A stretch of 64,000 nt of DNA from an uncultured Solirubrobacteraceae bacterium (GTDB lineage Bacteria > Actinomycetota > Thermoleophilia > Solirubrobacterales > Solirubrobacteraceae): the NCBI GenBank assembly GCA_963789005.1, contig CAWBIZ010000008.1, positions 15,643-79,642 of the forward strand, written 5' to 3'. This document shows positions 19,757 through 34,374 of the stretch, one piece after another (the stretch's first letter is position 1; every line of letters begins with the position of its first letter). A program made the position numbers and the translations under genes. The notes beneath the pieces were generated by a model that saw nothing but the letters and a program-made list of their open reading frames with translations, did no database searches and had not been told where the DNA came from.

Positions 19757-20275
19757 ATGTCCACCGGATTGATCATCGCCATCGTGGTGATCGCGATCGT
19801 CCTGATCGCGCTCTTCGCGTTCGTTCTGCCGCGCGCCCGCCGTCAGGCGCAGGTCAAGGCTCGTGAACGCGAGCTGCAGAACCGGCGCCAGCAGGTCGCA
19901 GGTGAGAATCGCGCCGAGGCCGAGCAGCGAAAGCGTCAGGCCGAGACCGCCGAGCAGAAGGCACGCATGGCCGAGCAGGAGGCCAAGCGCGAGCGCGCGG
20001 AGGCCGGCATGCACGAGGAGCGCGCCAAGATGCACGAAGAGGGCCGCGCCGACCACGAGCTGATCGACGAGAACGAGCGCCAGCGGTTCGCGGGGACGTC
20101 GGCCGATGCCCAGACTGCGGACGACGACGGCTTTGCCGACCGGTCGACCGGCGCCGAGGCCGAGGGCGATCGCCCGATGCACGAGCCGGACACCGAGTAC
20201 GAGCGAGGCCGCGAGGACGAGCGGCGCTTCGAGCGCCAGGAGGAGTCCGAGCGCCCCGACGTCCGCCGCACCTAG
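19757..20275 (+). CDS. Membrane-anchored, highly charged coiled-coil-like protein (hypothetical)
   Basis: N-terminal TM segment GLIIAIVVIAIVLIALFAFVL, followed by E/R/K/A/Q-rich sequence. High GC3. Confidence 0.6.
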   Translation: MSTGLIIAIVVIAIVLIALFAFVLPRARRQAQVKARERELQNRRQQVAGENRAEAEQRKRQAETAEQKARMAEQEAKRERAEAGMHEERAKMHEEGRADHELIDENERQRFAGTSADAQTADDDGFADRSTGAEAEGDRPMHEPDTEYERGREDERRFERQEESERPDVRRT

Positions 20276-21978
20276 CCGCGGACGGTCACCTCTTCGAGCA
20301 GCGCCGTTGCGTCCTGGGGGCGCAGCGGCGCGCTCACGTGAAAGCCCTGGGCGAACTCGCAGCCCAAGAGCCGGAGGTGCTCGAGCTGGGTGGCGGTCTC
20401 CACGCCCTCGGCGACGACCTCGAGCGAGAGGCTGTGGGCGAGCCCGACGAGCGCCTTGACGATCTCGAACGCCCCGGCCTCCCGGCCCATGGCGGCGACC
20501 AGGCCGCGGTGGATCTTCACCGCGTCGCCCGGGAAGCGGTGCAGCAGGCGCAGCGAGCTGGCGCCGGTGCCGAAGTCGTCGAGATGCGAGCGCACGCCGT
20601 GGATCTCGAGCGCCTGAGTGAGCGTGTGCTGGGCGTACTCGAGCGTGTGCTCGGAGACCTCGAGCCGGAGCGCGCGGGGATCGAGCCGCGACGCCGTGAG
20701 CGCGGCGCCGAGCGCGAGCCCGAACCCGGGGTCCGCGAGCTCGCGGTGTGAGACGTTGACGCCGACGATCAGGCCGGCGCCGGCGGGCGTGCGCCGCCAG
20801 GCCGCGAGCCGGGCGGTCGCCTGCTCCAGCACCCAGCGGCCGAGCGGGACGATCAGGCCGGTCTCCTCGGCGATCGGCAGGAACTCGGACGGCTCGACGA
20901 AGCTGTCGCCCTCCGGCCAGCGGCAGAGCGCCTCGAAGCCGGCGATCCGGCCGGTGGCGGCCTGCACGATCGGCTGGTAGGCGACCTCGAGCCGGCGCTC
21001 CTCGATCGCCTTCCGCAGCTCGGTCTCCATGTCCAGCCGGCGCATCACCTGCGTGTGCATGCGGGCGTCGAACACGGCCTGGCGCCCGCGGCCGTCGGCC
21101 TTGGCGCGGTACATGGCGACGTCGGCGTCTCGCAGGACCGTCTCGGGCGCCGCGTCGGCGCCGGCGAGCGCGATCCCGATGCTGGCGTCGATGTGCAGCT
21201 CGCGGTCGTTGATCACGAACGGCGTTCTGAGCGTCGCGCGGACGCGCTCGGCCACGAGCGACGCCTCATGGGCGTCGGACACGCCGTCGAGAAGGACGGT
21301 GAACTCGTCGCCGCCGAGGCGGGCGACGGTGTCGGGCGGCCGGACGGCCGACTCGAGCCGCCGCGCGACCGCGATCAGCAGCCGGTCCCCCGCCTGGTGA
21401 CCGAGCGAGTCGTTGACGAGCTTGAAGCGATCGAGGTCGAGGAACAGCACGGCGGCGGCCGCCTGCGGGGTGGCACGCTGCGCGCGGCGGATCGCCTGGT
21501 CCAGGCGGTCGACGAACAGGACGCGGTTGGGGATCCCCGTGAGCGCGTCGTGCAGGGCGTCGTGCTGGAGGCGCTCCTCGGCGTGCTTGCGGGCCGAAAC
21601 GTCGGTCAGGCTGCCGACGACCCGGGTCGCCTGCCCGGCGTGGTCGCGCACAGCCGTCCCGCGAGCGAGCATCCACCGGTACGAGCCGTCCCGGTCCTGG
21701 ATCCGGTGCTCGTGCTCGAGATGCTGCGACGTACCCGCGCAGAGCGCCTCGATCGCCTGCTGGAGCGCGGCGCGATCGTCGGCGTGGACGCGGCCGAGCC
21801 ACTCTCCCGGCGCGTCGCCGAGCTCGTCGCCGGCGTACCCGAGCATCGCCTTCCAGCGGGGCGAGAGGTACAGCCGCTCGCGCGTGATGTCCCAGTCCCA
21901 CACGCCGTCGCCCGTGGCGTGCATCGCGAGCGCGTGGCGGTGCTCGGTGGTTTCAGCGTCGCCCTCGTCGGCGGTCAC
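20272..21978 (-). CDS. PAS-GGDEF-EAL c-di-GMP turnover protein
   Basis: PAS-like GDGVWDWDITRERLYLSPRWKAMLGY, then RLGGDEFTVLL, EALCRW and DDFGTG. The GTG start at 21978 overlaps the upstream stop in a GTGA arrangement. Confidence 0.88.
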   Translation of the reverse strand: MTADEGDAETTEHRHALAMHATGDGVWDWDITRERLYLSPRWKAMLGYAGDELGDAPGEWLGRVHADDRAALQQAIEALCAGTSQHLEHEHRIQDRDGSYRWMLARGTAVRDHAGQATRVVGSLTDVSARKHAEERLQHDALHDALTGIPNRVLFVDRLDQAIRRAQRATPQAAAAVLFLDLDRFKLVNDSLGHQAGDRLLIAVARRLESAVRPPDTVARLGGDEFTVLLDGVSDAHEASLVAERVRATLRTPFVINDRELHIDASIGIALAGADAAPETVLRDADVAMYRAKADGRGRQAVFDARMHTQVMRRLDMETELRKAIEERRLEVAYQPIVQAATGRIAGFEALCRWPEGDSFVEPSEFLPIAEETGLIVPLGRWVLEQATARLAAWRRTPAGAGLIVGVNVSHRELADPGFGLALGAALTASRLDPRALRLEVSEHTLEYAQHTLTQALEIHGVRSHLDDFGTGASSLRLLHRFPGDAVKIHRGLVAAMGREAGAFEIVKALVGLAHSLSLEVVAEGVETATQLEHLRLLGCEFAQGFHVSAPLRPQDATALLEEVTVRG

Positions 21979-22472
21979 GGGAGTTCCCGCTGCGGCGGCA
22001 GCGCGGCGGCGTCGAGCCAGTACGCGGTCAGCACCTTGATCAGGCGTACCAGCTCGATGAAGGTGGCCGGCTTCGGGATCACCGTGTTCGCCCCGGCCTC
22101 GTACGCGGCGGCCGTGGCGGTCGCGTCGAGCCCGCTCGCGATCACGACGACGGGGATGTGCCGCAGGTCGGCGTCGCGCTTGATCCGCGCGACCGCGCAG
22201 ACCCCGTCCTCGTCGGGCAGCCCGAGGTCGACCAGCACCACCGCCGGCTTCGGGTTCGCCGGGTTCGGGTCGCGCAGGTAGCGCTCCAGCTCCTCCGCGC
22301 TCTCGACCGTGCGCAGCATGCACGGGCCGGTGCCCTCGAGCAGCGCGTCGCGGATCATCGCCCGCGCGTCGGCATCGGCGTCCGCGAGCAGGACCGTCGG
22401 CGCGAGCGAAGCCGCAGCCGCGGCGCGTCCCGCCGTCGCGCCAGTGCCGGTGACCGTCCGTGGCCGCCCCAT
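21975..22472 (-). CDS. Stand-alone response-regulator receiver domain protein
   Basis: TVLLADADADAR..., phospho-acceptor context VVLVDLGLPDEDG, and the conserved K in VIPKPATF. Start placed at ATG 22472, preceded by GAAGGA. Confidence 0.85.
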   Translation of the reverse strand: MGRPRTVTGTGATAGRAAAAASLAPTVLLADADADARAMIRDALLEGTGPCMLRTVESAEELERYLRDPNPANPKPAVVLVDLGLPDEDGVCAVARIKRDADLRHIPVVVIASGLDATATAAAYEAGANTVIPKPATFIELVRLIKVLTAYWLDAAALPPQRELP

Positions 22473-22599
22473 ATCTGGTCCTTCATCGCTCCTGTACGTC
22501 ATGGGCGGCATCGATGCCGCACCGATGCATCGAGCCTACGCACCGGCCGCTATTACACGAGCGCGTTTCGGCGGATGTTCGAGAAGACTGACCGTTCGG

Positions 22600-23892
22600 T
22601 TAGGTCTGCCCGACCGCGGCGACCGCGCGTGCGGCAGCGTCGATCTCGGCGTCGTCCAGCGTGCGCGGATCGAGGAGCAACCGGTCGTCCTGGATGCGCC
22701 CGATCAGCGGGGGGTCGCCGGCGCGCAACGCGGCCGCCAGCGTGTCCGCGCCGGCCGGGCCGGGATCGAGCGCCACCGCGGGACCGTGCAGCTCGAGCAG
22801 CGGCAGCGCGCCGCCGCCGACGCGCGCCACGGCGCGGATCACGGCGCCGCCCGTGGCGGCGGCCAGCCGCTCGGCGCGCGCGGCGAGCGCGTCCTCGTCC
22901 ACCGTCAGCATCGCGAGCACCGGGATCGCCGCGCGGGCCTGCTCGGGGTCGCGGTAGAGCGCGAGCGTGGCCTCGAGCGCGGCCAGCGAGAGCTTGTCGA
23001 TCCGCATGGCGCGGGCGAGCGGATGGCGCCGGCAGGCCTCGACGGCGTCGTGCGCGCCGGCGAGCAGCCCCGCTTGAGGGCCCCCGAGCAGCTTGTCGCC
23101 CGAGAAGCAGACGACGGCCGCGCCCGCGCGCACCGACCGGCGCACGGGCGGCTCGTCGGCCAGCACCGCGACGTCGTCCGCGAGCAGGCCGGAGCCGACG
23201 TCGTCGATCACCGGGACGCCGAGCCCGCACAGCGCCTCGATCGCGACGGACTCGACGAACCCGAGCGTGCGGAAGTTCGACGGATGGACGCGCAGGATCG
23301 CGGCGGTCTCGGGCCCGAGCGCCGCGGCGTAGTCGGCCAGCCGCGTGCGGTTCGTCGTGCCGACCTCCACGAGCCGGGCTCCCGCCTGGGCGACGACGTC
23401 GGGGATCCGGAACGCCCCGCCGATCTCGATCGCCTGCCCGCGCGAGACGACGAGCTCGCGTCCGCCCGCGAGCGCCGCGGCGGCGAGCAGCGTCGCGGCC
23501 GCGCAGTTGTTGACGGCGAGCGCGGCCTCGGCGCCGGTCAGCTCGCGCAGCAGGCCCTCGACGTGGTCCTGGCGCGACCCTCGCCTGCCCGTCTCGACGT
23601 CGAGCTCGAGGTTGGAGTAGCCGTCGGCGACCCGGACGACCGCGTCGCGCGCGGCCGCCGCGAGCGGCGCGCGCCCGAGGTTCGTGTGCACCACGACTCC
23701 GGTGGCGTTGAGCACGCGCCGGAGCGACGGGCGCAGCCGCGACCGGGCGCGGTCGACGAGGTCGGGGTCGTCGCCGGCGCCGGACAGCAGCTCGGTGCGG
23801 CGGTCGGCCAGCTCGGCGCGTGCGACCGCGGTCGCGAGGCGGTCGACGGACGGCAGCGCACGCAGTCGCTCGCGGCGATCGTCGGCGTCCAT
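22600..23892 (-). CDS. selA: L-seryl-tRNA(Sec) selenium transferase
   Basis: PLP-lysine motif FSGDKLLGGPQAG, N-terminal LPSVDRL, 430 aa. Confidence 0.92.
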   Translation of the reverse strand: MDADDRRERLRALPSVDRLATAVARAELADRRTELLSGAGDDPDLVDRARSRLRPSLRRVLNATGVVVHTNLGRAPLAAAARDAVVRVADGYSNLELDVETGRRGSRQDHVEGLLRELTGAEAALAVNNCAAATLLAAAALAGGRELVVSRGQAIEIGGAFRIPDVVAQAGARLVEVGTTNRTRLADYAAALGPETAAILRVHPSNFRTLGFVESVAIEALCGLGVPVIDDVGSGLLADDVAVLADEPPVRRSVRAGAAVVCFSGDKLLGGPQAGLLAGAHDAVEACRRHPLARAMRIDKLSLAALEATLALYRDPEQARAAIPVLAMLTVDEDALAARAERLAAATGGAVIRAVARVGGGALPLLELHGPAVALDPGPAGADTLAAALRAGDPPLIGRIQDDRLLLDPRTLDDAEIDAAARAVAAVGQT

Positions 23893-23924: not shown

Positions 23925-24200
23925 CTAGCCTCCGAGGCCCTTCAGCTCGCGCCAGCGCTCCCGGGCCTGGATCACCAGCAGCGCGATCTGGCCGAGCTCG
24001 TCGCCCTGCTCGACGAACGCCGGCAGCATGAACCGGACCTGTTCGCCGTCCTGAACGCGCACGAGCGTGATCTGGTGCTCGCCGGTGGCGTCGTCGCGCT
24101 CGAACGGCAGGTAGCGCCAGCCGTCGGCGCCGGCGACCGGGACGCGTCCCTCGTCGTCGACGGGGCTCGCATCCGGGTCGGTCGGGTCGCTGCCGAACAT
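23925..24200 (-). CDS. Small acidic hypothetical protein in the FDH-selA operon
   Basis: 91 aa with high GC3. It starts 4 nt after the stop of the Fe-S module gene and ends 32 nt before selA. I recognise no motif. Confidence 0.6.
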   Translation of the reverse strand: MFGSDPTDPDASPVDDEGRVPVAGADGWRYLPFERDDATGEHQITLVRVQDGEQVRFMLPAFVEQGDELGQIALLVIQARERWRELKGLGG

Positions 24201-24204
24201 TCGC

Positions 24205-25167
24205 TCAGTCCTCCTCCGCCGGTCCGGGCAGTCCGCTGCGATCGTTCTGGACGAACTGGAAGCCGAACCGGCCCTTGATGCACAGGTTGCCGCTCGTCAC
24301 CGGATGGTCGAGTGGCGAGGTGACCTTGACGATCTCGTTGTCCTGCTCGTGCAGCACCAGGTTGCAGCCGACGCCGCAGTACGTGCAGATCGTCTGCGTC
24401 TGCGTCTGGCGCTCCTCGTCCCAGTCGCCCTGCTCGCGGAGGTCGAACTCGCTCTTGAACATCAGCGCGCCGGTCGGGCAGACGGCGATGCAGTTGCCGC
24501 AGTACACGCACGCGGAGTCCGGCAGCGGGTTGGCGAACTCGGTGGCGATCCGCGCGTCGAAGCCGCGGCCGGCAACGGCGATCGCGAACGTGTTCTGCCA
24601 GTCGGTGCCGCAGCCCTCGACGCACTTGTAACAGAGGATGCACTTCGCGTAGTCGCGCACGTAGAGCTCGTTGTCGACCTTGACCGGCTGGTGCACGGTG
24701 GCCGCGTGGCGACCGTCGGGCGTCTCGTGGTGGCCGGCGCGGAGGCGGTCGCGCTCGCCGGCCTCGAACGGGGGCGCCGGCGGTCCGTAGCGGTCGGGGT
24801 CGGCGCCGTACTCCTCGATCCAGCGGTCGACGTCGGGCATCGCCGACAGGTCGACGGAGGAGGCGAGGAACTCGATCACCATCCTGCGGCTCAGCTTCAC
24901 GCGATCGGAGTGGGTCTCGACCTCCATGCCCTCCTCGACCTTGCGCGAGCAGGACGGGACGAGCGTGCGGGCGCCCTTGACCTCGCACACGCACACGCGG
25001 CAGGCGTTGACGGGCGTGAGCGTGCGCTCCCAGCACATCGTGGGGATGTCGATCCCCTGGCCCTGTGCGACGTCGAGGATCGTCTGGTCCTCGCGCGCGG
25101 TGACGGGCTCGCCGTTGAGCGTGAGCTCGACGACGCGCGCCGGCGCCCCGGTCCGTGTCCTGCTCAT
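24205..25167 (-). CDS. Formate dehydrogenase Fe-S module (NuoG/FdsA N-terminal-like: 2Fe-2S, 2x 4Fe-4S ferredoxin, MopB 4Fe-4S)
   Basis: C-terminal 320 aa of ORF 24205..26574. Motifs CWERTLTPVNACRVCVC...C, CILCYKCVEGC, CVYCGNCIAVCP and CTYCGVGC...CIKG. Its ATG at 25167 overlaps the upstream stop as ATGA. Confidence 0.88.
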   Translation of the reverse strand: MSRTRTGAPARVVELTLNGEPVTAREDQTILDVAQGQGIDIPTMCWERTLTPVNACRVCVCEVKGARTLVPSCSRKVEEGMEVETHSDRVKLSRRMVIEFLASSVDLSAMPDVDRWIEEYGADPDRYGPPAPPFEAGERDRLRAGHHETPDGRHAATVHQPVKVDNELYVRDYAKCILCYKCVEGCGTDWQNTFAIAVAGRGFDARIATEFANPLPDSACVYCGNCIAVCPTGALMFKSEFDLREQGDWDEERQTQTQTICTYCGVGCNLVLHEQDNEIVKVTSPLDHPVTSGNLCIKGRFGFQFVQNDRSGLPGPAEED

Positions 25168-27026
25168 CGCTGCCCCGCCGTCTCGAAGACGTCGAGCTTG
25201 CGCAGCGCCGACTCGATCGCGTCGGCGGCGGTCTGCCCGAGCCCGCAGATCGACGCGTCGCGCATCGACGCGGTGATCTCGTCCAGCAGCGCATACTCCT
25301 GCTCGACCGACCCTCGGGGGCGCCCGTTGACGAGCCGGGCGAGCGCCTCCTCCTGGCGGACCGTGCCGACCCGGCAGGGCACGCACTGGCCGCACGACTC
25401 GTCGCGGAAGAACGCGGCCAGCCGCATCAGGATGGCCGGGAGGTCGACGGTGTCGTCGACGACCATGACGACGCCGGAGCCCATGCTGACCCCGGCCTCG
25501 CGCGTGGCCTCGAACGACATCTCGACGTCGAGCTCGTCCGGCGTGACGAAGCGGCCCGCGGCTCCGCCGAGCATGACCGTCCGCAGCGGCCGCCCGTCGA
25601 TCACGCCGCCGCCCAGCTCGAGCAGCTCGCGGAGCGTGACGCCGAACGGCGCTTCGTACAGCCCGGGCTTCGCGATCCGGCCCGAGAGGCAGAACAGGCG
25701 CGTCCCGGTCGAGTCCTCGGTGCCGATCCGCGCGTAGGCCTCGCCTCCCTCCATGACGATGCCCGGGACGTTGACCAGCGTCTCGACGTTGTTGATCACG
25801 GTGGGCTTGTCGAACAGGCCCTTGTCGACCGGGAACGGCGGCTTGTTGCGGGGCTCGCCGCGATAGCCCTCGATCGAGTTGAAGAGCGCGGTCTCCTCGC
25901 CGCAGATGTAGGCGCCGGCCCCCTTGCGCAGCTCGATGTCGAACGCGTGGCCCTGGCCGAGGATGTCCTGGCCGAGGAAGCCGCGTGCGCGGGCGGCGGT
26001 GATCGCGCGCACGAGCCGGTCCCAGGCCAGCGGGTACTCGCCGCGCAGGTACAGGTAGCCGTGCTCGCAGCCGGTCGCGATGCCGGCGATCGTCATCGAC
26101 TCGACGATCGAGAACGGGTCGTGCTCGAGGATCACGCGGTCCTTGAACGTGCCCGGCTCGGACTCGTCGGCGTTGCAGATCAGGTAGTGCGGGCGCTTGG
26201 CGTTGCGGGCGACCGCCTCCCACTTGCGTCCGGTCGGGAACGCCGCGCCGCCGCGGCCCAGGAGCTTGGAGTCCGTCACCTCGCGCAGCACGCGGTCCGG
26301 CCCCATCTCGACGGCGGCGCGCAGCGCCTCGTAGCCGCCGTGCGCGCGGTAGCTGTCGATGCTCTCGGGGTCGACCACGCCGACGCGGCGCAGCAGCCGC
26401 AGCGACGGGTCGCCGGCCTGCGGGACGCGCGGCGCCGGTGGCGGCGGCGCCTCGCCGCTCGCGAGCATGGCCGCGATGTCGGCGGCGTCGACCGGCGCGG
26501 CAGACGCCTCGCGCGGCTCGGGGCCCGCCACGGTCAGCATCGCGGCGGGCGCGTACTCGCACATCCCCAGGCATGGGCTCTCATGCCACACGGCCTGGCC
26601 GTTGCCGGGATGCGATCCCTCGGGACCGACGGTCCGCTCGAGGTCCGCGACGAGCTCCTGCGATCCGCGCGCGATGCAGGCCACGTCGGTGCACACGTGG
26701 GCCACGACCGGCGGCTGCGGCTCGAGCGAGAACAGCGCGTAGAACGACGCCACGCCGTACGCCTCGGCCGGCGGGATCGTCAGCCGCCGGCAGACGTAGT
26801 TGAGCGCACCGCGGCTGATCCACCCGACGCGCGACTGGAGCGCGTGCAGCGTCGGGAGCAGCAGGTGGCGCTGTGCGCGCGCGGCATGCCCGCCGCGTGC
26901 CACGCGCTGGTCGCGGGCGGAGGCCTGCTCGGCGCCCTCCCAGCTCGACCGCGGCGGGCCGAGCACCGCGTCGACGGCCTCGCGCTCCGGCGCCGTCGGC
27001 AGCTCGTTCTGGATGACGAGGTCCAT
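25164..27026 (-). CDS. NuoE-like + NuoF-like fusion (NAD/FMN diaphorase module of NAD-dependent formate dehydrogenase)
   Basis: NuoE-type 2Fe-2S motif (VCTDVAC...CLGMC), then GRGGAAFPTGRKWE, the FMN/NAD motif ICNADESEPGTFKDR, and the 4Fe-4S motif ESCGQCVPCR. The start overlaps the upstream stop as TGATG. Confidence 0.9.
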   Translation of the reverse strand: MDLVIQNELPTAPEREAVDAVLGPPRSSWEGAEQASARDQRVARGGHAARAQRHLLLPTLHALQSRVGWISRGALNYVCRRLTIPPAEAYGVASFYALFSLEPQPPVVAHVCTDVACIARGSQELVADLERTVGPEGSHPGNGQAVWHESPCLGMCEYAPAAMLTVAGPEPREASAAPVDAADIAAMLASGEAPPPPAPRVPQAGDPSLRLLRRVGVVDPESIDSYRAHGGYEALRAAVEMGPDRVLREVTDSKLLGRGGAAFPTGRKWEAVARNAKRPHYLICNADESEPGTFKDRVILEHDPFSIVESMTIAGIATGCEHGYLYLRGEYPLAWDRLVRAITAARARGFLGQDILGQGHAFDIELRKGAGAYICGEETALFNSIEGYRGEPRNKPPFPVDKGLFDKPTVINNVETLVNVPGIVMEGGEAYARIGTEDSTGTRLFCLSGRIAKPGLYEAPFGVTLRELLELGGGVIDGRPLRTVMLGGAAGRFVTPDELDVEMSFEATREAGVSMGSGVVMVVDDTVDLPAILMRLAAFFRDESCGQCVPCRVGTVRQEEALARLVNGRPRGSVEQEYALLDEITASMRDASICGLGQTAADAIESALRKLDVFETAGQR

Positions 27027-28975
27027 CAGCCGGCCGGCTGCGCGGCGGCGCTGCGCCGCTCCGCCTCCTCGTCCTCGCCGAGCGGGATCCGGTCGACCCG
27101 GATCGCGGTGGCCTTGAACTCCGCGGTGCCCGACTTCGGATCGGTCGCGTTGATGGTGAGCAGGTTGGTCTCCACCTCGTCGGGGAAGTGCAGCGTCATG
27201 AACGCCAGGCCGGGGCGCAGCGACGACTCGATGCGCACCGGGGCGATGACGCTACCTCGCGCCGACGACACGCGCACCCGCTCGCCGCTGACCACGCCGA
27301 GCTCCTCGGCGTCCTGCGCCGACAGCTCGAGCTCCTCCCCGCGCCGCAGCGGCGACGTGTAGCCGCCGCTCTGCACGCCGGTGTTGAAGGAGTCGAGCCG
27401 GCGGCCGGTCGTCAGGCGCAGCGGGTACTGCTCCGAGAGCGCCTCGACGGGCGGGGAGTCCTCGACCGCGTGGAACACGGCCGCCGGCCCCTCCAGCGGC
27501 TCCTTCCACAGCCGCCCGTGCAGGAACGTCGGCTCGAGCGTGTCCTCGCTGAAGCATGGCCACTGGATCCCGCCGAGCTCCTCCAGCCGCCGGTAGCTCA
27601 TCCCGGCGTGGTTCGGCGCCAGCGAGCGCAGCTCGTCCCAGACGTCCTCGGCCGACTCGTACTCCCAGCTGTGGCCGAGGCGTCCCGCGAGGTCGACCAT
27701 GATGCGCACGTCGTCGCGCGCGTTGCCCGGCGGCTCGAGCGCGGCGCGGACCCGCTGCACGCGCCGCTCGCTGTTCGTCACCGTGCCCTCCGCCTCGCAC
27801 CAGCTGGCCGAGGCCGGCAGCACGACGTCGGCCATCTCCGCGGTCGCGGTGCGGAAGATGTCCTGCACGACGAGGTGGTCGAGGCGCTCGAACAGGCCTC
27901 TGACGTGATGGCCGTCGGCGTCGGACTGGATCGGGTTCTCGCCGAGCACGAACATCGTCGTCAGCTCGTCGCGGTCGATCGCCTCGAACATCTCGGTCAT
28001 GTGCCAGCCGTACTTCGGCGTGAGCTTGACGCCCCACGCCCGCTCGTACTTCGCAACCGCCTCGGGGTCGGTCTCGAGGTCCTGGAAGCCCGGCAGCCGG
28101 TTCGGGATCGCGCCCATGTCGCCGCCGCCCTGCACGTTGTTCTGGCCGCGCAGCGGGTTCAGGCCCGAGCCGTAGCGGCCCACGTGCCCGGTCAGCAGCG
28201 CCAGGTTGATCAGCGCGAGCACGTTGTCGACCGCGTTGTGGTGCTCGGTGATCCCCAGCGTCCAGCAGATCTGGGCGCGATCCGCGCGCGCGTACGTGTG
28301 CGCGACGTCCCGGATCACGTCGCCCGGCACGCCGCTGAGCGCCTCGGCCCGCTCCAGCGTGTACGGCTCGACGGCGGCCGCGAAGGCCTCGAAGCCCGAC
28401 GTGCCGCGCTCGATGAACTCGCGGTTGTGCAGCCCCGCGTGGATGATCTCGCGGGCCATCCCGTTCGCCAGCGCGACGTCGCTGCCCACGTTGAGGCCGA
28501 GCCACGTGTCGGCCCACTGCGCGGTCGTGGTCCGCCGCGGGTCGATCGCGTACATGCGCGCCCCGCTGTGGATCGCCTTCAGCACGTGGTGGAAGAAGAT
28601 CGGGTGCGCCTCGCGCGCGTTGGAGCCCCACAGCAGGATCACGTCCGTGTCCTGCACCTCCTGGTATGAGCTGGTGCCTCCACCAGCGCCGAATACCGTC
28701 GCCAGACCGACGACGCTAGGAGCGTGTCAAGTTCGGTTGCACGAATCGATGTTGTTCGTGCCGATCGCCACGCGCGTGAACTTCTGCGCGATGAAGTTGA
28801 CCTCGTTCGTGGCCTTGGAGCAGCTGAGCATCCCGTACGTGTCGGGCCCGTGGGCGTCGACCGCGCGGCGGAAGCCGGATGCGGCGCGGTCGAGTGCCTC
28901 GTCCCAGGTCGCTGTGCGCAGGACCCCGTCGTCGCGGACCAGTGGCTCGGTCAGGCGGGCGTACTTCCTCGGCAT
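27026..28975 (-). CDS. fdhA: Formate dehydrogenase molybdopterin catalytic module, selenocysteine-containing (UGA at 28727-28729 read as Sec)
   Basis: ORFs 28727..28975 and 27026..28657 share one frame. Reading through TGA gives ...NIDSCNRT-U-HAPSVVGLATVFGAGGGTSSYQEVQDTDVILLWGSN..., the FdhF-type active-site context. GGAGAG lies 5 nt upstream of ATG 28975. Confidence 0.9.
28697..28715 (-). promoter_or_regulatory. Bacterial SECIS hairpin
   Basis: On the mRNA strand the element is CGUCGUC-GGUCU-GGCGACG: a 7-bp stem with one G.U pair and apical loop GGUCU. It starts 11 nt after the UGA. Confidence 0.65.
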
Positions 28976-29028: not shown

Positions 29029-29769
29029 ATGTGGGCGAAGCTCGTGCGCGACGGCGAAGAGGATCTGGTGGCGGTCGAGGAGCCGCTCGAGATCCGCGTC
29101 GACGGCGCGCCGCTCGCCGTGACCATGCGCACGCCCGGCCACGACGAGGAGCTCGCGCTGGGCTTCCTGTTCACCGAGGGCCTGATCGACACGCCGCGCC
29201 ACGCCGGGCTGACCGAGGACCTGGCGGCGAACACGATCGAGGTCGAGGGGCCGATGACCCGCGACCCGGGCAACCGCCGCTTCTACACGAGCTCCTCCTG
29301 CGGCGTCTGCGGCAAGGGCGCGCTCGAGGAGGTCGCCGTGCACGCCGACCCCGCCACGCCCGGGCCCGAGATCGAGCGCGCGCTGCTCGCGGCCCTGCCC
29401 GACCGGCTGCGCCAGCCGGCGTTCGAGCGCACCGGCGGCCTCCACGCCACCGGGCTGTTCGCGCCCGACGGCGAGCTGCTGTGCGTCCGCGAGGACGTCG
29501 GACGCCACAACGCGATGGACAAGGTGGTCGGCCGGGCGCTGCTCGGAGGCGCGCTGCCGCTGCATGGGCGGATCCTGTGCGTCAGCGGCCGGCTGTCGTT
29601 CGAGCTGGTCCAGAAGGCCGCCGTGGCCGGGGCGCCGATCCTCGTCGGCGTGGGCGCGCCGAGCTCGCTCGCGGTCAGCCTCGCCGCCGATCGCGGCATG
29701 ACGCTCGGCGGGTTCGCCCGCCGCGGCAGCGTCAACGTGTACACCGGCGCCGAGCGCGTGCTGGGATGA
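29029..29769 (+). CDS. fdhD: Formate dehydrogenase accessory sulfurtransferase FdhD
   Basis: Motifs MRTPGHDEELALGFLFTEGLI, SSCGVCGKG and GRHNAMDK. ATG 29029 lies inside ORF 28879..29769. Confidence 0.9.
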   Translation: MWAKLVRDGEEDLVAVEEPLEIRVDGAPLAVTMRTPGHDEELALGFLFTEGLIDTPRHAGLTEDLAANTIEVEGPMTRDPGNRRFYTSSSCGVCGKGALEEVAVHADPATPGPEIERALLAALPDRLRQPAFERTGGLHATGLFAPDGELLCVREDVGRHNAMDKVVGRALLGGALPLHGRILCVSGRLSFELVQKAAVAGAPILVGVGAPSSLAVSLAADRGMTLGGFARRGSVNVYTGAERVLG

Positions 29770-30794
29770 GCGAGGCGATCGCGCTCACGTCGCTGTCGCA
29801 TGGCGCCGGCTGCGGCTGCAAGCTGTCGGCCGCCGACATCGGCCCGATCGTGCGGTCGCTGCCGGCGATCGACGATCCGCGGCTGCTGATCGGCAGCGCG
29901 ACGGCCGACGACGCCGGCGTCGTGCGCGTGCGCGACGACCTGGCGCTCGTGCAGACGGTGGACTTCTTCACGCCGATCGTGGACGACCCGTACGACTTCG
30001 GTCGCATCGCGGCGGCCAACGCGCTGTCGGACATCTACGCGATGGGCGCCGAGCCGCTGAGCGCGCTGAATCTGGTCGCGTTCCCGCTCGAGCGGCTCGG
30101 CCCCGGCGTGCTCGCCGAGATCCTGCGCGGCGGCGGCGACGTGGTGCGCGAGGCCGGCGCGCTGCTCGTGGGCGGCCACTCGATCGACGATCCGGAGCCG
30201 AAGTACGGCCTCGCGGTCACCGGCACGGTCGACCCCGCGCGCGTGATCGGCAACGCCGGCGGGCGGGCCGGCGATGCGCTGGTGCTGACGAAGCCGCTCG
30301 GCGTCGGCGCGATCTCGACCGCGCTCAAGCGCGGGCACGGCGACGGGCTGCTCGCGCCCGCCGTCGCCGTGATGACCGCGCTGAACGCCGCGGCGGCGCA
30401 CGCCGCGCGGCAGGCGGGCGCACACGCCATGACCGACGTGACCGGCTTCGGGCTGCTCGGGCACCTGCACGAGCTCACCGCGGCGAGCGCGCTCGCGGCC
30501 GAGGTCGACGCCGACGCCGTGCCGGCGATCGAGGGGGTGGAGGCGCTGCTGCGCGGCGACGACGCGGTCTCGGGCGGCAGCCGGCGCAATCGCGAGCACG
30601 CCGAGACGTTCACGCGCTTCGCCGCAGGCGTGGAGGAATGGCGCCGCCGCCTGGTGTGCGACGCCACCACCTCGGGCGGCCTGCTGGTCGCGGTCGCGGC
30701 CGAGCGCGCCGCGGACGTCCCGGGCGCCGTCGTCGGGCGCCTGGTCGACGGTCGTCCCGGCAGCATCAGCGTGAGCCGTGGATCATCTGCTTGA
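29766..30794 (+). CDS. selD: Selenide, water dikinase (Cys form)
   Basis: LSHGAGCGCKLS N-terminal motif with Cys at the Sec/Cys position, plus DDAGV and GGHSIDD. The start overlaps the fdhD stop as ATGA. Confidence 0.92.
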   Translation: MSEAIALTSLSHGAGCGCKLSAADIGPIVRSLPAIDDPRLLIGSATADDAGVVRVRDDLALVQTVDFFTPIVDDPYDFGRIAAANALSDIYAMGAEPLSALNLVAFPLERLGPGVLAEILRGGGDVVREAGALLVGGHSIDDPEPKYGLAVTGTVDPARVIGNAGGRAGDALVLTKPLGVGAISTALKRGHGDGLLAPAVAVMTALNAAAAHAARQAGAHAMTDVTGFGLLGHLHELTAASALAAEVDADAVPAIEGVEALLRGDDAVSGGSRRNREHAETFTRFAAGVEEWRRRLVCDATTSGGLLVAVAAERAADVPGAVVGRLVDGRPGSISVSRGSSA

Positions 30795-30799
30795 CGCGT

Positions 30800-30892
30800 G
30801 GAGCGGCCCGGGCCCGGTGGTCCAACCGGCCTTCAAAGCCGGGGAGCCGCGGCAACCCCGCGGTGGGAAGGTTCGACTCCTTCGCCGCTCCG
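30800..30892 (+). tRNA. selC: tRNA-Sec (anticodon UCA)
   Basis: Hand fold: 8-bp acceptor GGAGCGGC/GCCGCTCC, 5-bp D stem with 4-nt loop, anticodon loop CTTCAAA, 6-7-bp long variable arm CCGCGG-CAACC-CCGCGG, T arm GAAGG-TTCGACT-CCTTC, discriminator G. CCA is not encoded. Confidence 0.9.
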
Positions 30893-30914: not shown

Positions 30915-32375
30915 GTGAGCGGCGCCATCCCGCTCACGGTCGGGACGGCCGGTCACATCGACCACGGCAAGACCGCGCTCGTCCGCGCGCTCACCGGGAG
31001 AGACACCGATCGGCTGCCGGAGGAGCAGGCCCGCGGCATGTCGATCGACCTCGGCTTCGCCCAGCTCGACGTCGGCGGCCGGCTGCTCTCGCTCGTCGAC
31101 GTCCCCGGCCACGAGCGCTTCGTGCGCACCATGGTCGCCGGCGCGACCGGCGTCGACCTGTTCCTGCTCGTCGTCGCCGCCGACGACGGCGTGATGCCGC
31201 AGACGGTCGAGCACGCGGCGGTGCTGCGCGCGCTCGGGGTGCGCGCGGGGGTCGTGGCGGTGACGAAGACCGACCTCGCAGACTCCGCGCGCGCTCGTGA
31301 TGAAGCCCGCGCACTGGTCGGCGAGGGCGTCCCGATCGTGGACTGCTCCGCCCGCGCCGGCACCGGCGTCGAGCAGGTCCGCGCCGCGATCGCCCACGTC
31401 GCGGCGGCACAGGTTCCGGGCGAGCGGTCGCACGACGGCGCGGCCGTGCTCCACGTCGACCGCTCGTTCACCATCCGCGGCGCAGGAACCGTGGTCACCG
31501 GGACGCTGTGGTCAGGCTCACTCGGCGCCGGCGACCGCGTCACCCTTCTGCCTTCCGGCCGGCGCGCCCGGGTGAGGAGCGCGCAGGTGCACGACGCCGC
31601 CGTCGAGCGGGCGATCGCCGGACAGCGCGTCGCCGTGAACCTCGCCGGAGTCCGTGTCGACGCAATCGGCCGCGGGCACGTGGTGACCGGCGAGGACGCC
31701 GGGTTGCGGCCGTCGTGGATCCTCGACGTCGCGCTCGAGCTCGGCGACGCTGAGATCCCACGCCGCGCACAGATCCACCACGGCACGCGCGAGACGCCGG
31801 CACGGATCGCCGAGCGCGAGCCCGGGCGCTGGCAACTGCGCTGCGAGCGACCGCTGATCGCGCGCGCCGGAGACCGCTTCGTCGTCCGCTCGATCGCCCC
31901 GCCCGGCACGCTCGGCGGCGGCATCGTCCTCGATCCGGCCGCACGGCGCACGCGCCGGCCGGAGCAGTCCGAGGAACCCCGGCCGGCCACGCCGCCACCG
32001 CCGCCGCAGCCGCAGGCGCTGTCGGAGACCGCGCTCGAGCTCGAGCAAACGCTGCGCGCCGCCGGCGACCGCCCACCGCGCGACAGCGAGCTGAACGAGG
32101 GCGCCGAGGCGGCGCTGGCAGAGCTGCGAACCGCCGGCCGCGTCGTGCGGCTCGACCGGACGATGCACATCCACCGCGAGGCACTCGACACGCTCCGCGA
32201 TCGCGTCACGGCGATCATCACCGCCGAGGACTCGATCACGCTCGCGCGGCTGCGCGACGAGCTCAGCACCTCGCGCCGCTACGCACAGGCGCTGCTCGAG
32301 GCGCTCGACGCCGAGCGGGTCACGCTAAGGCTGCCCGACGACCGCCGCATCCTGCGGCGCAGGCGTGCCTCCTGA
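30915..32375 (+). CDS. selB: Selenocysteine-specific translation elongation factor
   Basis: GTAGHIDHGKTALVRALTG (G1), DVPGHERF (G3), TKTD (G4). The GTG at 30915 is the first start after the tRNA-Sec. Confidence 0.9.
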   Translation: MSGAIPLTVGTAGHIDHGKTALVRALTGRDTDRLPEEQARGMSIDLGFAQLDVGGRLLSLVDVPGHERFVRTMVAGATGVDLFLLVVAADDGVMPQTVEHAAVLRALGVRAGVVAVTKTDLADSARARDEARALVGEGVPIVDCSARAGTGVEQVRAAIAHVAAAQVPGERSHDGAAVLHVDRSFTIRGAGTVVTGTLWSGSLGAGDRVTLLPSGRRARVRSAQVHDAAVERAIAGQRVAVNLAGVRVDAIGRGHVVTGEDAGLRPSWILDVALELGDAEIPRRAQIHHGTRETPARIAEREPGRWQLRCERPLIARAGDRFVVRSIAPPGTLGGGIVLDPAARRTRRPEQSEEPRPATPPPPPQPQALSETALELEQTLRAAGDRPPRDSELNEGAEAALAELRTAGRVVRLDRTMHIHREALDTLRDRVTAIITAEDSITLARLRDELSTSRRYAQALLEALDAERVTLRLPDDRRILRRRRAS

Positions 32376-33454: not shown

Positions 33455-33693
33455 CGCCCGGTCCCCTGGCTGGTGCCGTCGTCAGCGCCATCGCACCCGA
33501 TCTGCACCAGCCCGACGGTGCGGTCGAACACGACCTCCATTTTCTGACCCTCCCGTCGTCCCTTTCACCGGTGGTCAATCGCACCGTTTTCAGGGTGGTC
33601 GCGAGCTGACCTCGTCCGTTGCCACATCGGGAGCTGGGTGCTTCGCTTCAGTGTGGAAGGTCTCTGATCGCTTCCTCGATGGGAGGTTGTGGC

Positions 33694-34374
33694 ATGCGCA
33701 GGTGTGCTCTCGTCGCGCTCGGCCTCGTCTTGGCCGGATCGTCACTGTTCACCGCGACGGCCTCGGCAGGAGGCTCACGCGACCACAATCCTGTCGTCAG
33801 CCAGGTCATCCGCGACTGCGCACGCGACGGCGATCTGGACCGGACCTACCCGCTCCGCGCGCTGCGCCGGGCGCTCGACCAGCTCCCGCGGCACGTCCGT
33901 CGCCACACGCGCTGCGAACGCAAGCTCGAGCACGCGATCGATCGCGCCAAGCGCCGCCTCGACCACGAGGTCGGCAAGATCTGGCGGGACTGCAGCCGCG
34001 ACGACGACCTCGACCGTCACTACAGCCTGCGCGCCCTCCGACGGGCACTGCGGCGACTTCCGACCGACCTGCGTGACTACACCGACTGCGAAGGCGCGAT
34101 TCGGCGCGCGATCCGGCGAGCCCAGCGGCCCCTCGACCGCGAGGTGGGCAAGATCTGGCGGGACTGCAGCCGCGACGACGACCTCGACCGTCACTACAGC
34201 CTGCGCGCCCTCCGACGGGCACTGCGGCGACTTCCGACCGACCTCCGCGACTACACCGACTGCGAGAAGGCCATCAAGCGCGCGATCCGCCGAGCGGAGA
34301 AGGATCGCGATCACCACCACGGACACGGAAAGGACCACGACCGCCACCACGGGCACGGAAAGCCCCGGGGTTAG
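33694..34374 (+). CDS. Secreted Cys-containing 3x58-aa repeat protein with His-rich tail (hypothetical)
   Basis: GGGAGG lies 8 nt upstream of ATG 33694. Signal peptide MRRCALVALGLVLAGSSLFTATASA, three repeats, and the tail DRDHHHGHGKDHDRHHGHGK. Confidence 0.7.
   Translation: MRRCALVALGLVLAGSSLFTATASAGGSRDHNPVVSQVIRDCARDGDLDRTYPLRALRRALDQLPRHVRRHTRCERKLEHAIDRAKRRLDHEVGKIWRDCSRDDDLDRHYSLRALRRALRRLPTDLRDYTDCEGAIRRAIRRAQRPLDREVGKIWRDCSRDDDLDRHYSLRALRRALRRLPTDLRDYTDCEKAIKRAIRRAEKDRDHHHGHGKDHDRHHGHGKPRG
33793..34314 (+). repeat. Intragenic tandem repeat, 3 x 174 bp
   Basis: Units start at 33793, 33967 and 34141. Units 2 and 3 are near-identical at DNA level over about 140 bp (EVGKIWRDCSRDDDLDRHYSLRALRRALRRLPTDLRDYTDCE). 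Unit 1 is diverged. Confidence 0.85.

Follow-up and report, generated by a model that had tools for sequence, protein, structure and literature searches.

We analyzed a 64,000-nucleotide stretch (hereafter the window) of contig CAWBIZ010000008.1 from an uncultured Solirubrobacteraceae bacterium, in which three collinear minus-strand genes carry the modules of a metal-dependent formate dehydrogenase (FDH): a catalytic Mo-domain gene (MoC), a NuoE-NuoF fusion gene (EF) and an Fe-S subunit gene (FeSN), in that order on the coding strand. Open reading frame (ORF) calls and translation agreed with the coordinates that a first-pass annotation, made from the sequence alone, had given for all three (Table 1), and which it had read as one FDH catalytic polypeptide split at a domain boundary, with its halves encoded in swapped order around the fusion gene. 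MoC starts MPRKYARLTEPLVR... and has its own Shine-Dalgarno sequence, GGAGAG, 8 nt upstream of the ATG, as had been proposed. In the list that we used, every ORF was opened at the earliest start codon following a stop, and MoC begins there at this same ATG, so an upstream extension that would add an Fe-S domain is impossible. The MoC stop and the EF start overlap in TGATG (junction GGCTGATGGAC), the EF stop and the FeSN start overlap in ATGA (junction AGCGATGAGCAG), and the G+C content at third codon positions (GC3) was 0.96 in MoC, EF and FeSN alike, matching the overlaps and the uniformly high GC3 described earlier.

A Pfam domain search, which the first-pass annotation had suggested, returned E-values far beyond chance and bore out its assignments. 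MoC matched Molybdopterin (PF00384, 2.7e-68, profile positions 1-352 of 353) and Molydop_binding (PF01568, 1.1e-24) and nothing else, with no Pfam match to Molybdop_Fe4S4 (PF04879), in agreement with the claim that it lacks an Fe-S domain. EF proved to be the NuoE-NuoF fusion that had been described, with 2Fe-2S_thioredx, Complex1_51K, SLBB and NADH_4Fe-4S domains, the last at residues 532-610 of 620, and no Pfam match to Fer4 or other C-terminal ferredoxin-type domains. In FeSN we found Fer2_4, Fer4_Nqo3/Fer4 and a complete Molybdop_Fe4S4 domain (2e-19, profile positions 3-55 of 55), and no Pfam match to NADH-G_4Fe-4S_3 (PF10588), the domain of the His-ligated cluster, an absence that the first-pass annotation had not mentioned. 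The ligands followed the same pattern. FeSN contains 17 Cys, none of them within residues 88-170, and 16 could be assigned to four sets: a predicted [2Fe-2S] site (C45, C56, C59, C73), two ferredoxin-type [4Fe-4S] sites (C176/179/182/186 and C220/223/226/230) and the MopB-type proximal [4Fe-4S] cluster, termed FS0 or A1 (C261/264/268/296, followed by K298-G), as in the earlier description of this 320-residue protein. Compared with Rhodobacter FdsA, the H/C/C/C ligands of cluster A4 were the sole cluster ligands missing. EF keeps both the NuoE-type (C112/117/152/156) and the NuoF-type (C545/548/551/594) ligands and retains the GRGGAAFPTG...NADESEPGTFKDR region, while MoC displays the active-site motifs CNRT-U83-H84-APSV, where U is selenocysteine (Sec), and R276-GQNNVQG; the combination of U/C-H with R-G-Q is that of class I FDHs in a published motif classification (PMC8808070).

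The exact break point was defined with TIGR01591, the NCBIfam equivalog for the FDH alpha subunit (672 positions, cut-off 666.25 bits). FeSN residues 259-308 corresponded to positions 1-50 of this model (46.6 bits) and MoC residues 6-627 to positions 52-672 (637.1 bits), which places the FS0 part on FeSN and leaves the MoC N-terminus without it; MoC alone thus scored below the cut-off, whereas the two pieces sum to 683.7 bits, above it. The clean cut between the FS0 and Mo domains that had been postulated was therefore recovered. Likewise, FeSN residues 5-308 aligned to FdsA residues 20-305 (9wxb_B, 1.4e-40; 6tg9_A, 1.7e-37), and MoC aligned to FdsA residues 308-931. FeSN ends ~10 residues past GRFGFQFVQN and MoC starts 6 residues ahead of RLTEPLVR, while in unsplit relatives only a few residues lie between these two motifs (...GRFGYDFINHPDRLKPPLIK in protein P0194 and ...GQFAYDFVQHPDRLKTPLVR in protein P0232), in accordance with the earlier statement that in single-chain enzymes the last cluster motif runs into the segment that here opens MoC.

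This organization recurred far beyond the window. A genome scan yielded 80 loci, and in the tblastn comparison that had been recommended, made with the window proteins, the order MoC-EF-FeSN was present in all 76 loci with the three genes complete, which came from Solirubrobacterales, Thermoleophilaceae, Gaiellales and Nocardiopsis. The break point was constant, with FeSN ending in ...GRFG(F/Y)Q(F/Y/H)VQ(N/S) plus a short variable tail and MoC starting with M-x(2-5)-(Y/L)(A/T)RLTEPLVR, and wherever both gene ends were readable, start/stop overlaps were seen again in Solirubrobacterales-type and several Gaiellales-type loci. Order, break point and overlaps were all kept in the most divergent member (P0130, 51% identity), and the complete chromosome of Nocardiopsis dassonvillei encodes, with the same order and break point, a Molybdopterin-Molydop_binding protein of 647 aa, a NuoE-NuoF protein of 656 aa, an FeSN of 313 aa and FdhD. 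Nearly all of the 120 best FeSN homologues (from Solirubrobacterales, Gaiellales and other Actinomycetota) were ~300-350 aa long, none carried a Molybdopterin domain, and all but one retained the full FeSN domain set; a search from the Nocardiopsis protein further found an FeSN of ~310 aa in many cultured Actinomycete genera, including Nocardiopsis, Streptomonospora, Glycomyces, Marinactinospora, Actinomadura, Saccharopolyspora, Lentzea, Halopolyspora and Demetria. In the set of the 150 best representatives of 50%-identity clusters, clearly full-length unsplit proteins (~840-980 aa) appeared only at 37-42% identity, and matches above that identity were ~500 aa or less; those inspected proved to be split-type proteins that were fragmentary or had been called with frameshifts. 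Four further relatives (P0194, P0232, P0253 and P0266; 360-440 aa, 37-41% identity) end just before the Sec codon and are therefore unsplit genes cut there by the gene caller. No split-type homologue was found in the plasmid collection by tblastn (best match 42% identity). The ratio of nonsynonymous to synonymous substitution (dN/dS; Nei-Gojobori, window against three relatives) was 0.11-0.28 for each of the three genes, the MoC value for locus L003 being left out because that comparison was out of frame. As to spacing, MoC and EF are separated by 225 nt in N. dassonvillei (L081), whereas the genes overlap in Thermoleophilia, and in Nocardiopsis sp. CNT-189 (L078, 4383-5910) ~1.5 kb without a convincing ORF lies between them, a stretch that could represent either an insertion or an element that has decayed.

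These data bear directly on whether the split and swapped order could be an assembly or annotation artefact, or the decaying fragments of a broken fdsA. Errors of this kind do occur, since some related loci in metagenome-assembled genomes (MAGs), apparently from long reads, show frameshift-split high-scoring segment pairs (HSPs), and gene callers routinely cut these genes at the Sec TGA. In MFD-series MAG loci (L003, L013, L041, L048, L057, L070, L072, L076 and others), the FDH genes lie in frame-shifted HSPs, a pattern suggestive of indel errors in the assemblies and not of pseudogenes, and database 'fusion' proteins joining the EF tail to FeSN (e.g., P0128 and P0124) look like errors of the same kind. 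Yet 76 independent assemblies, including the complete N. dassonvillei chromosome, share one order and one break point, an upstream extension of the MoC ORF is blocked in many loci, and all three genes combine low dN/dS and a GC3 of 0.96 with intact cluster ligands; conservation across genomes together with this selection shows neither artefact nor decay, and we regard the artefact explanation as already refuted, with next to no probability left to it. The earlier view of a functional three-chain enzyme rather than decayed remnants thus appears sound as far as sequence comparison can tell. The first-pass annotation had also foreseen that the split order might already be the annotated norm in the clade, which would remove novelty, and at the level of genomes and annotations it is: the split form is common and now standard across Thermoleophilia and many cultured Actinomycetes, and hence not peculiar to this window, and it is annotated in pieces, with FeSN labelled '2Fe-2S iron-sulfur cluster-binding protein' and, in some entries, 'NAD-dependent formate dehydrogenase iron-sulfur protein'. 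We found no published description of this split in the searchable FDH reviews and primary papers, where absence is no proof; the split FDH is an unreported variant of a known enzyme type.

From the gene structure, domains, ligands, conservation and selection observed, we consider it likely that the locus encodes a soluble, NAD(+)-linked Mo/W formate dehydrogenase comparable to FdsABG or MeFDH1, one that is conserved, naturally split into three polypeptides and encoded by the translationally coupled genes MoC, EF and FeSN, in this order. In such an enzyme, formate would be oxidized at the Sec-Mo/W-bis(pyranopterin guanine dinucleotide) (bisPGD) site of MoC, and the electrons would leave via FS0, which would be held on the C-terminal 55-residue domain of FeSN and supplied in trans by non-covalent docking of this domain onto MoC. 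From FS0 they would travel along FeSN by way of its pair of ferredoxin-type [4Fe-4S] clusters and its [2Fe-2S] cluster, enter EF at the [4Fe-4S] cluster and flavin mononucleotide (FMN) of its NuoF-like portion, and finally reduce NAD+. The NuoE-like [2Fe-2S] of EF would be an off-pathway, N1a-like centre, and the off-pathway, His-ligated A4 has been lost. In Rhodobacter FdsABGD, the path runs bis(molybdopterin guanine dinucleotide)-A1-A2-A3-A5-B6-FMN, where A1 is FS0 and A5 is the [2Fe-2S] cluster, and A4 (H117, C121, C124, C130) lies off the path at the dimer interface (PMC7171172). Ligands for every on-path cluster of that chain were present in FeSN or EF.

A different partition of the same genes would make EF and FeSN a HoxFU-like diaphorase with its own acceptor and give MoC another redox partner. 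FeSN does also match HoxU, NuoG and [FeFe]-hydrogenase N-terminal models, and the joining of the three proteins in one complex is something that we infer; however, MoC by itself has no Fe-S cluster to which it could hand electrons, FeSN carries the Molybdop_Fe4S4 domain, the two proteins are exactly complementary on TIGR01591, and the genes are always adjacent, with overlapping starts and stops where the junctions are readable, all of which makes two separate enzymes very unlikely. The Molybdop_Fe4S4 domain sits against the pterin with a conserved Lys (here C296-x-K298-G) in every MopB enzyme known to us. It is equally improbable, in our judgment, that this architecture serves an electron-bifurcating or ferredoxin-linked FDH of the HylABC-FdhF2/HydABC (Bfu) type. 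The NuoF part of EF scored 388-401 bits against HydB/HoxF-type chains and 371 bits against FdsB, and a separate Fe-S subunit recalls HylA, but EF ends at NADH_4Fe-4S (residue 610 of 620) with no Fer4 match, and this lack of C-terminal ferredoxin domains speaks against a bifurcating Hyl/Hyd-type enzyme; moreover, the hosts are aerobic soil Actinomycetota, and the N-terminal module of FeSN aligns best with FdsA.

We next considered how the two halves arose. Over shared alignment columns, MoC was 42%, 43% and 37% identical to the stand-alone enzymes Methanospirillum hungatei FdhA, the FdhF of the hydrogen-dependent CO2 reductase (HDCR) and FdhH, respectively, 40% and 41% identical to the extended types P0247 and a Candidatus Poribacteria protein (L082), and 38% identical to a proteobacterial FdsA, and was thus about equally distant from stand-alone and extended FdhA types. 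In a bootstrapped neighbour-joining (NJ) tree of the Mo domain, the split clade was monophyletic (100%), and its sister was the unsplit, extended Sec-FdhA of Ca. Poribacteria (84%). Outside the split clade, this L082 protein was alone among the sampled sequences in having an N-terminal module without A4 ligands; it has many close relatives in sponge-associated metagenomes. We therefore favour, on this comparative evidence, one fission event in a single-chain FdhA of the extended type that lacked A4, combined with a change in gene order. The earlier assignment to FdhF/FdsA-type ancestry stood in so far as one FdhA/FdsA-type polypeptide appears to have been divided, but derivation specifically from FdsA did not, given identities of ~41-43% to stand-alone FdhA/FdhF against ~38% to a proteobacterial FdsA. 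For the gene order, duplication followed by loss (A-EF-A-EF or EF-A-EF-A trimmed to C-EF-N, with A the unsplit gene and C and N its halves) is a plausible hypothesis, as it would give exactly this order and would need no non-functional intermediate. No intermediates of duplication and loss were found among the loci and relatives compared, and a search from the Poribacteria relative P0232 gave only close relatives, with no deeper intermediates or ancestral operon order. Among other proteins encountered, P0226, P0252 and P0236 are NuoG/FdhA-like, keep FS0, have neither Cys nor Sec at the catalytic position, and carry a long insertion within the His-cluster motif and a fused C-terminal NuoE-like domain, while P0135 (1405 aa) contains two FdhA-like units in tandem.

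Several points weigh against a split FDH descended from one chain. Complex formation, the electron path, NAD+ as the acceptor and the metal (Mo or W) are inferred from sequence. An AlphaFold2 (AF2) model of FeSN built on a 58-sequence alignment reached a mean predicted local distance difference test (pLDDT) score of only 59, with cluster-binding regions below 50. In the NJ tree of the N-terminal module, the split clade was again supported at 100%, but its sister group was not recovered. In the Protein Data Bank (PDB), MoC matched stand-alone FdhA/FdhF better (509-439 bits) than FdsA types (401-410 bits); since its best solved relatives are stand-alone enzymes, descent of the two halves from a single FdsA-like chain is supported only by the 84% NJ node and the shared A4 loss. 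Finally, supply of FS0 in trans would leave maturation unexplained by analogy with NarG and DmsA, in which FS0 insertion in cis precedes, and is required for, insertion of the molybdenum cofactor (Moco) (PMC5123574). The PDB ranking might also be read as a sign of separate MoC ancestry, but we give this signal less weight, because identities to stand-alone and extended types are about equal (roughly 37-43%) and the sister in the Mo-domain tree is an extended FdhA.

Some of these points suit a history of complementary degeneration, in which a stand-alone FdhA lost FS0 while the NuoG/HoxU-like subunit of a neighbouring diaphorase kept an FS0-like (N7-type) domain and lost a degenerate Mo domain, so that the gene order needs no rearrangement. 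The top solved relatives of MoC are stand-alone FdhA/FdhF and those of FeSN are FdsA N-termini, NuoG-like proteins with FS0 and a Cys/Sec-less Mo domain (P0226, P0252, P0236) exist among the FeSN relatives, and the N-terminal-module tree names no sister group. However, the Mo-domain tree sets the split clade beside extended single-chain FdhA (84%) rather than stand-alone enzymes, the extended Poribacteria relative shares the otherwise unique loss of A4 ligands, and the NuoG-like proteins fall together with P0247 (92% bootstrap) in a clade to which the split clade does not belong. Complementary degeneration is thus less well supported than single fission, and we judge it unlikely, though less so than the two functional alternatives above.

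The reading of a three-chain FDH formed by fission leads to a further, tentative proposal, which as a whole we regard as doubtful: that this would be the first recognized Mo/W-bisPGD enzyme with FS0 in trans, in which MoC would be a cluster-free cartridge that either receives its pterin before FS0, contrary to the NarG/DmsA order, or matures only after docking onto FeSN, with the last-translated FeSN and the adjacent small protein small91 perhaps taking part in a distinct assembly pathway. The interest of the system lies chiefly in maturation, which is only partly understood in metal-dependent FDHs despite the intensive work on these enzymes for CO2 reduction; a widespread enzyme under selection with FS0 on a different, later-translated polypeptide offers a natural experiment on the FS0-before-Moco rule. 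It also presents a catalytic module that is separable from its electron wire at a defined seam, which is of use in modular enzyme engineering, and Cys-type versions in cultured Nocardiopsis make the enzyme directly accessible to study. Because the MoC score lies slightly below the TIGR01591 cut-off and FeSN carries a generic name, it is easy to overlook the FDH capacity of Thermoleophilia and Actinomycetes that are abundant in soil. The system opens no long-standing question, and we expect it to share the chemistry of known NAD-linked FDHs.

The flanking genes and the Sec codon are listed in Table 1. The ligand codon was TGA in 75 of 75 Thermoleophilia-type loci and TGC (Cys) in Nocardiopsis. 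Downstream of this codon lies a hairpin resembling a Sec insertion sequence (SECIS), whose core GCGUCGUCGGUCUGGCGACGG was almost invariant over the 75 TGA loci, third-codon and synonymous positions included, apart from a one-base change near its 3' end in a minority, and had diverged in the Cys-type locus. Its folding energy was not significant alone (z = -0.76), so the support for a SECIS hairpin is the conservation pattern. A complete Sec machinery wraps the FDH operon, with selA downstream and fdhD-selD-tRNA-Sec-selB upstream, where fdhD is transcribed divergently from MoC. ORF 29766..30794 (+), whose start overlaps the fdhD stop, we take from its translation to be selD (selenophosphate synthetase). 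The mechanical selB ORF call (30798) overlaps tRNA-Sec, and the real start is therefore probably the GTG listed. Directly after FeSN, and translationally coupled to it, small91 was found in nearly all operon-bearing Solirubrobacterales/Thermoleophilaceae-type loci, with weaker relatives a few kb from the operon in several others, and shows invariant residues W28, P60, F62, G66 and R82. It had no match in Pfam or NCBIfam and only chance-level matches in a PDB profile search; a single-sequence AF2 model of low confidence (pLDDT 64) has three strands and a helix, in contrast to the four-helix bundle of FdsD. The protein may be an FDH accessory factor or a small, fourth subunit. Elsewhere in the window, at 20272-22511 (minus strand), a PAS-GGDEF-EAL protein (683-aa ORF) lies beside a response-regulator-like ORF just downstream of selA, both assigned from translations alone and seemingly unrelated to the FDH operon, and ORF 33619-34374 (+) contains two near-identical internal repeats of ~55 aa (…DREVGKIWRDCSRDDDLDRHYSLRALRRALRRLPTDLRDYTDCE…) and a His-rich C-terminus.

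Table 1. Features of the split FDH locus (positions in the window) and the unsplit Ca. Poribacteria relative.
Feature	Position	Strand	Description
selA	22600..23892	-	Selenocysteine synthase; follows small91, same strand as the fdh genes
small91	23925..24200	-	91-aa ORF; starts 5 nt after the FeSN stop; own AGGAGG
FeSN	24205..25167	-	Fe-S 'wire' subunit, 320 aa; cluster sites predicted from ligands
EF	25164..27026	-	NuoE-like [2Fe-2S] domain plus NuoF-like FMN/NAD(H) domain with [4Fe-4S] site, 620 aa
MoC	27026..28975	-	Catalytic Mo/W-bisPGD subunit; 649 codons, Sec83, without FS0 [4Fe-4S] domain
SECIS-like hairpin	28687..28724	-	7-bp stem (GUCGUCG/CGACGGC region), GGUCU loop; starts 11 nt after UGA
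Sec codon	28727..28729	-	In-frame UGA (CNRT-U-HAPSV); single in-frame TGA of MoC
fdhD	29029..29769	+	Sulfurtransferase, Mo-bisPGD maturation; Pfam FdhD-NarQ 7.4e-62; start placed by conservation
tRNA-Sec (selC)	30800..30892	+	Anticodon UCA; between selD and selB
selB	30915..32375	+	Sec-specific elongation factor; probable GTG start
L082	8001-10715 of Ca. Poribacteria MAG		Unsplit extended Sec-FdhA, ~904 aa

We finally compared the locus with known systems. FdsABG(D) of Rhodobacter capsulatus (6TGA) and Cupriavidus necator likewise has the bisPGD, FS0, two [4Fe-4S] clusters, a [2Fe-2S] cluster, the NuoF-like [4Fe-4S], FMN and the NuoE-like [2Fe-2S], with an FdhD/FdsC accessory gene adjacent. 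It differs in that FdsA is one 958-aa chain, here two chains cut after FS0, and its genes run G-B-A instead of C-half/EF/N-half; FdsG and FdsB are separate and the thioredoxin-like N-domain of FdsB is cluster-less, in contrast to a single E-F fusion with cluster ligands; single-chain FdsA holds A1-A5 including the His-ligated A4, absent here; and the metal ligand is Cys, compared with Sec in this genome. A proteobacterial FdsA is only ~38% identical to MoC, and no FdsD homologue was detected at the locus, small91 having no Pfam match. The beta subunit of MeFDH1 (Methylorubrum extorquens Fdh1AB, 7E5Z/7VW6) is a NuoE-NuoF fusion, like EF, and 7e5z_B aligned to EF residues 51-609. Its alpha subunit is a single 989-aa chain, whereas here this part is divided into MoC and FeSN. 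Presumably the alpha gene precedes the beta gene in the fdh1AB operon, as MoC precedes EF, and we take the alpha subunit to be that of a Cys-W enzyme that keeps the His-ligated cluster. ForCE of Bacillus subtilis (YjgC/YrhE, with a DUF1641 partner) likewise includes an extended FdhA, whose N-terminal Fe-S module is NuoG-like (415 bits for MoC against 8rqz_C), but ForC is a single, menaquinone-linked chain with CQ...RGH motifs and no NuoEF partner, whereas MoC has UH...RGQ. In HylABC-FdhF2 and HydABC (Bfu), as here, the catalytic subunit is connected to a flavoprotein module of the NuoE/NuoF type through a separate Fe-S subunit. In those complexes FS0 stays on the catalytic FdhF2 itself, and the bifurcating HydB/HylB NuoF-like subunits carry extra C-terminal ferredoxin domains; here, by contrast, FS0 is on the wire subunit and EF has no such additional domains. 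Within the same superfamily, formylmethanofuran dehydrogenase is also a naturally split Mo/W-bisPGD enzyme, in which FwdD gives the fourth domain in trans to FwdB (PMC7331816), but its split lies at the opposite end of the protein, where domain III is parted from domain IV, and FS0 stays on the catalytic chain. The Ca. Poribacteria Sec-FdhA (L082), the closest unsplit relative of MoC among those sampled, shares both Sec and an N-terminal module without A4 ligands, and is a single chain with no NuoEF genes nearby. Collectively, FdsABG(D), MeFDH1, ForCE and HylABC-FdhF2 are the closest characterized systems, and all of them carry FS0 on the catalytic chain.

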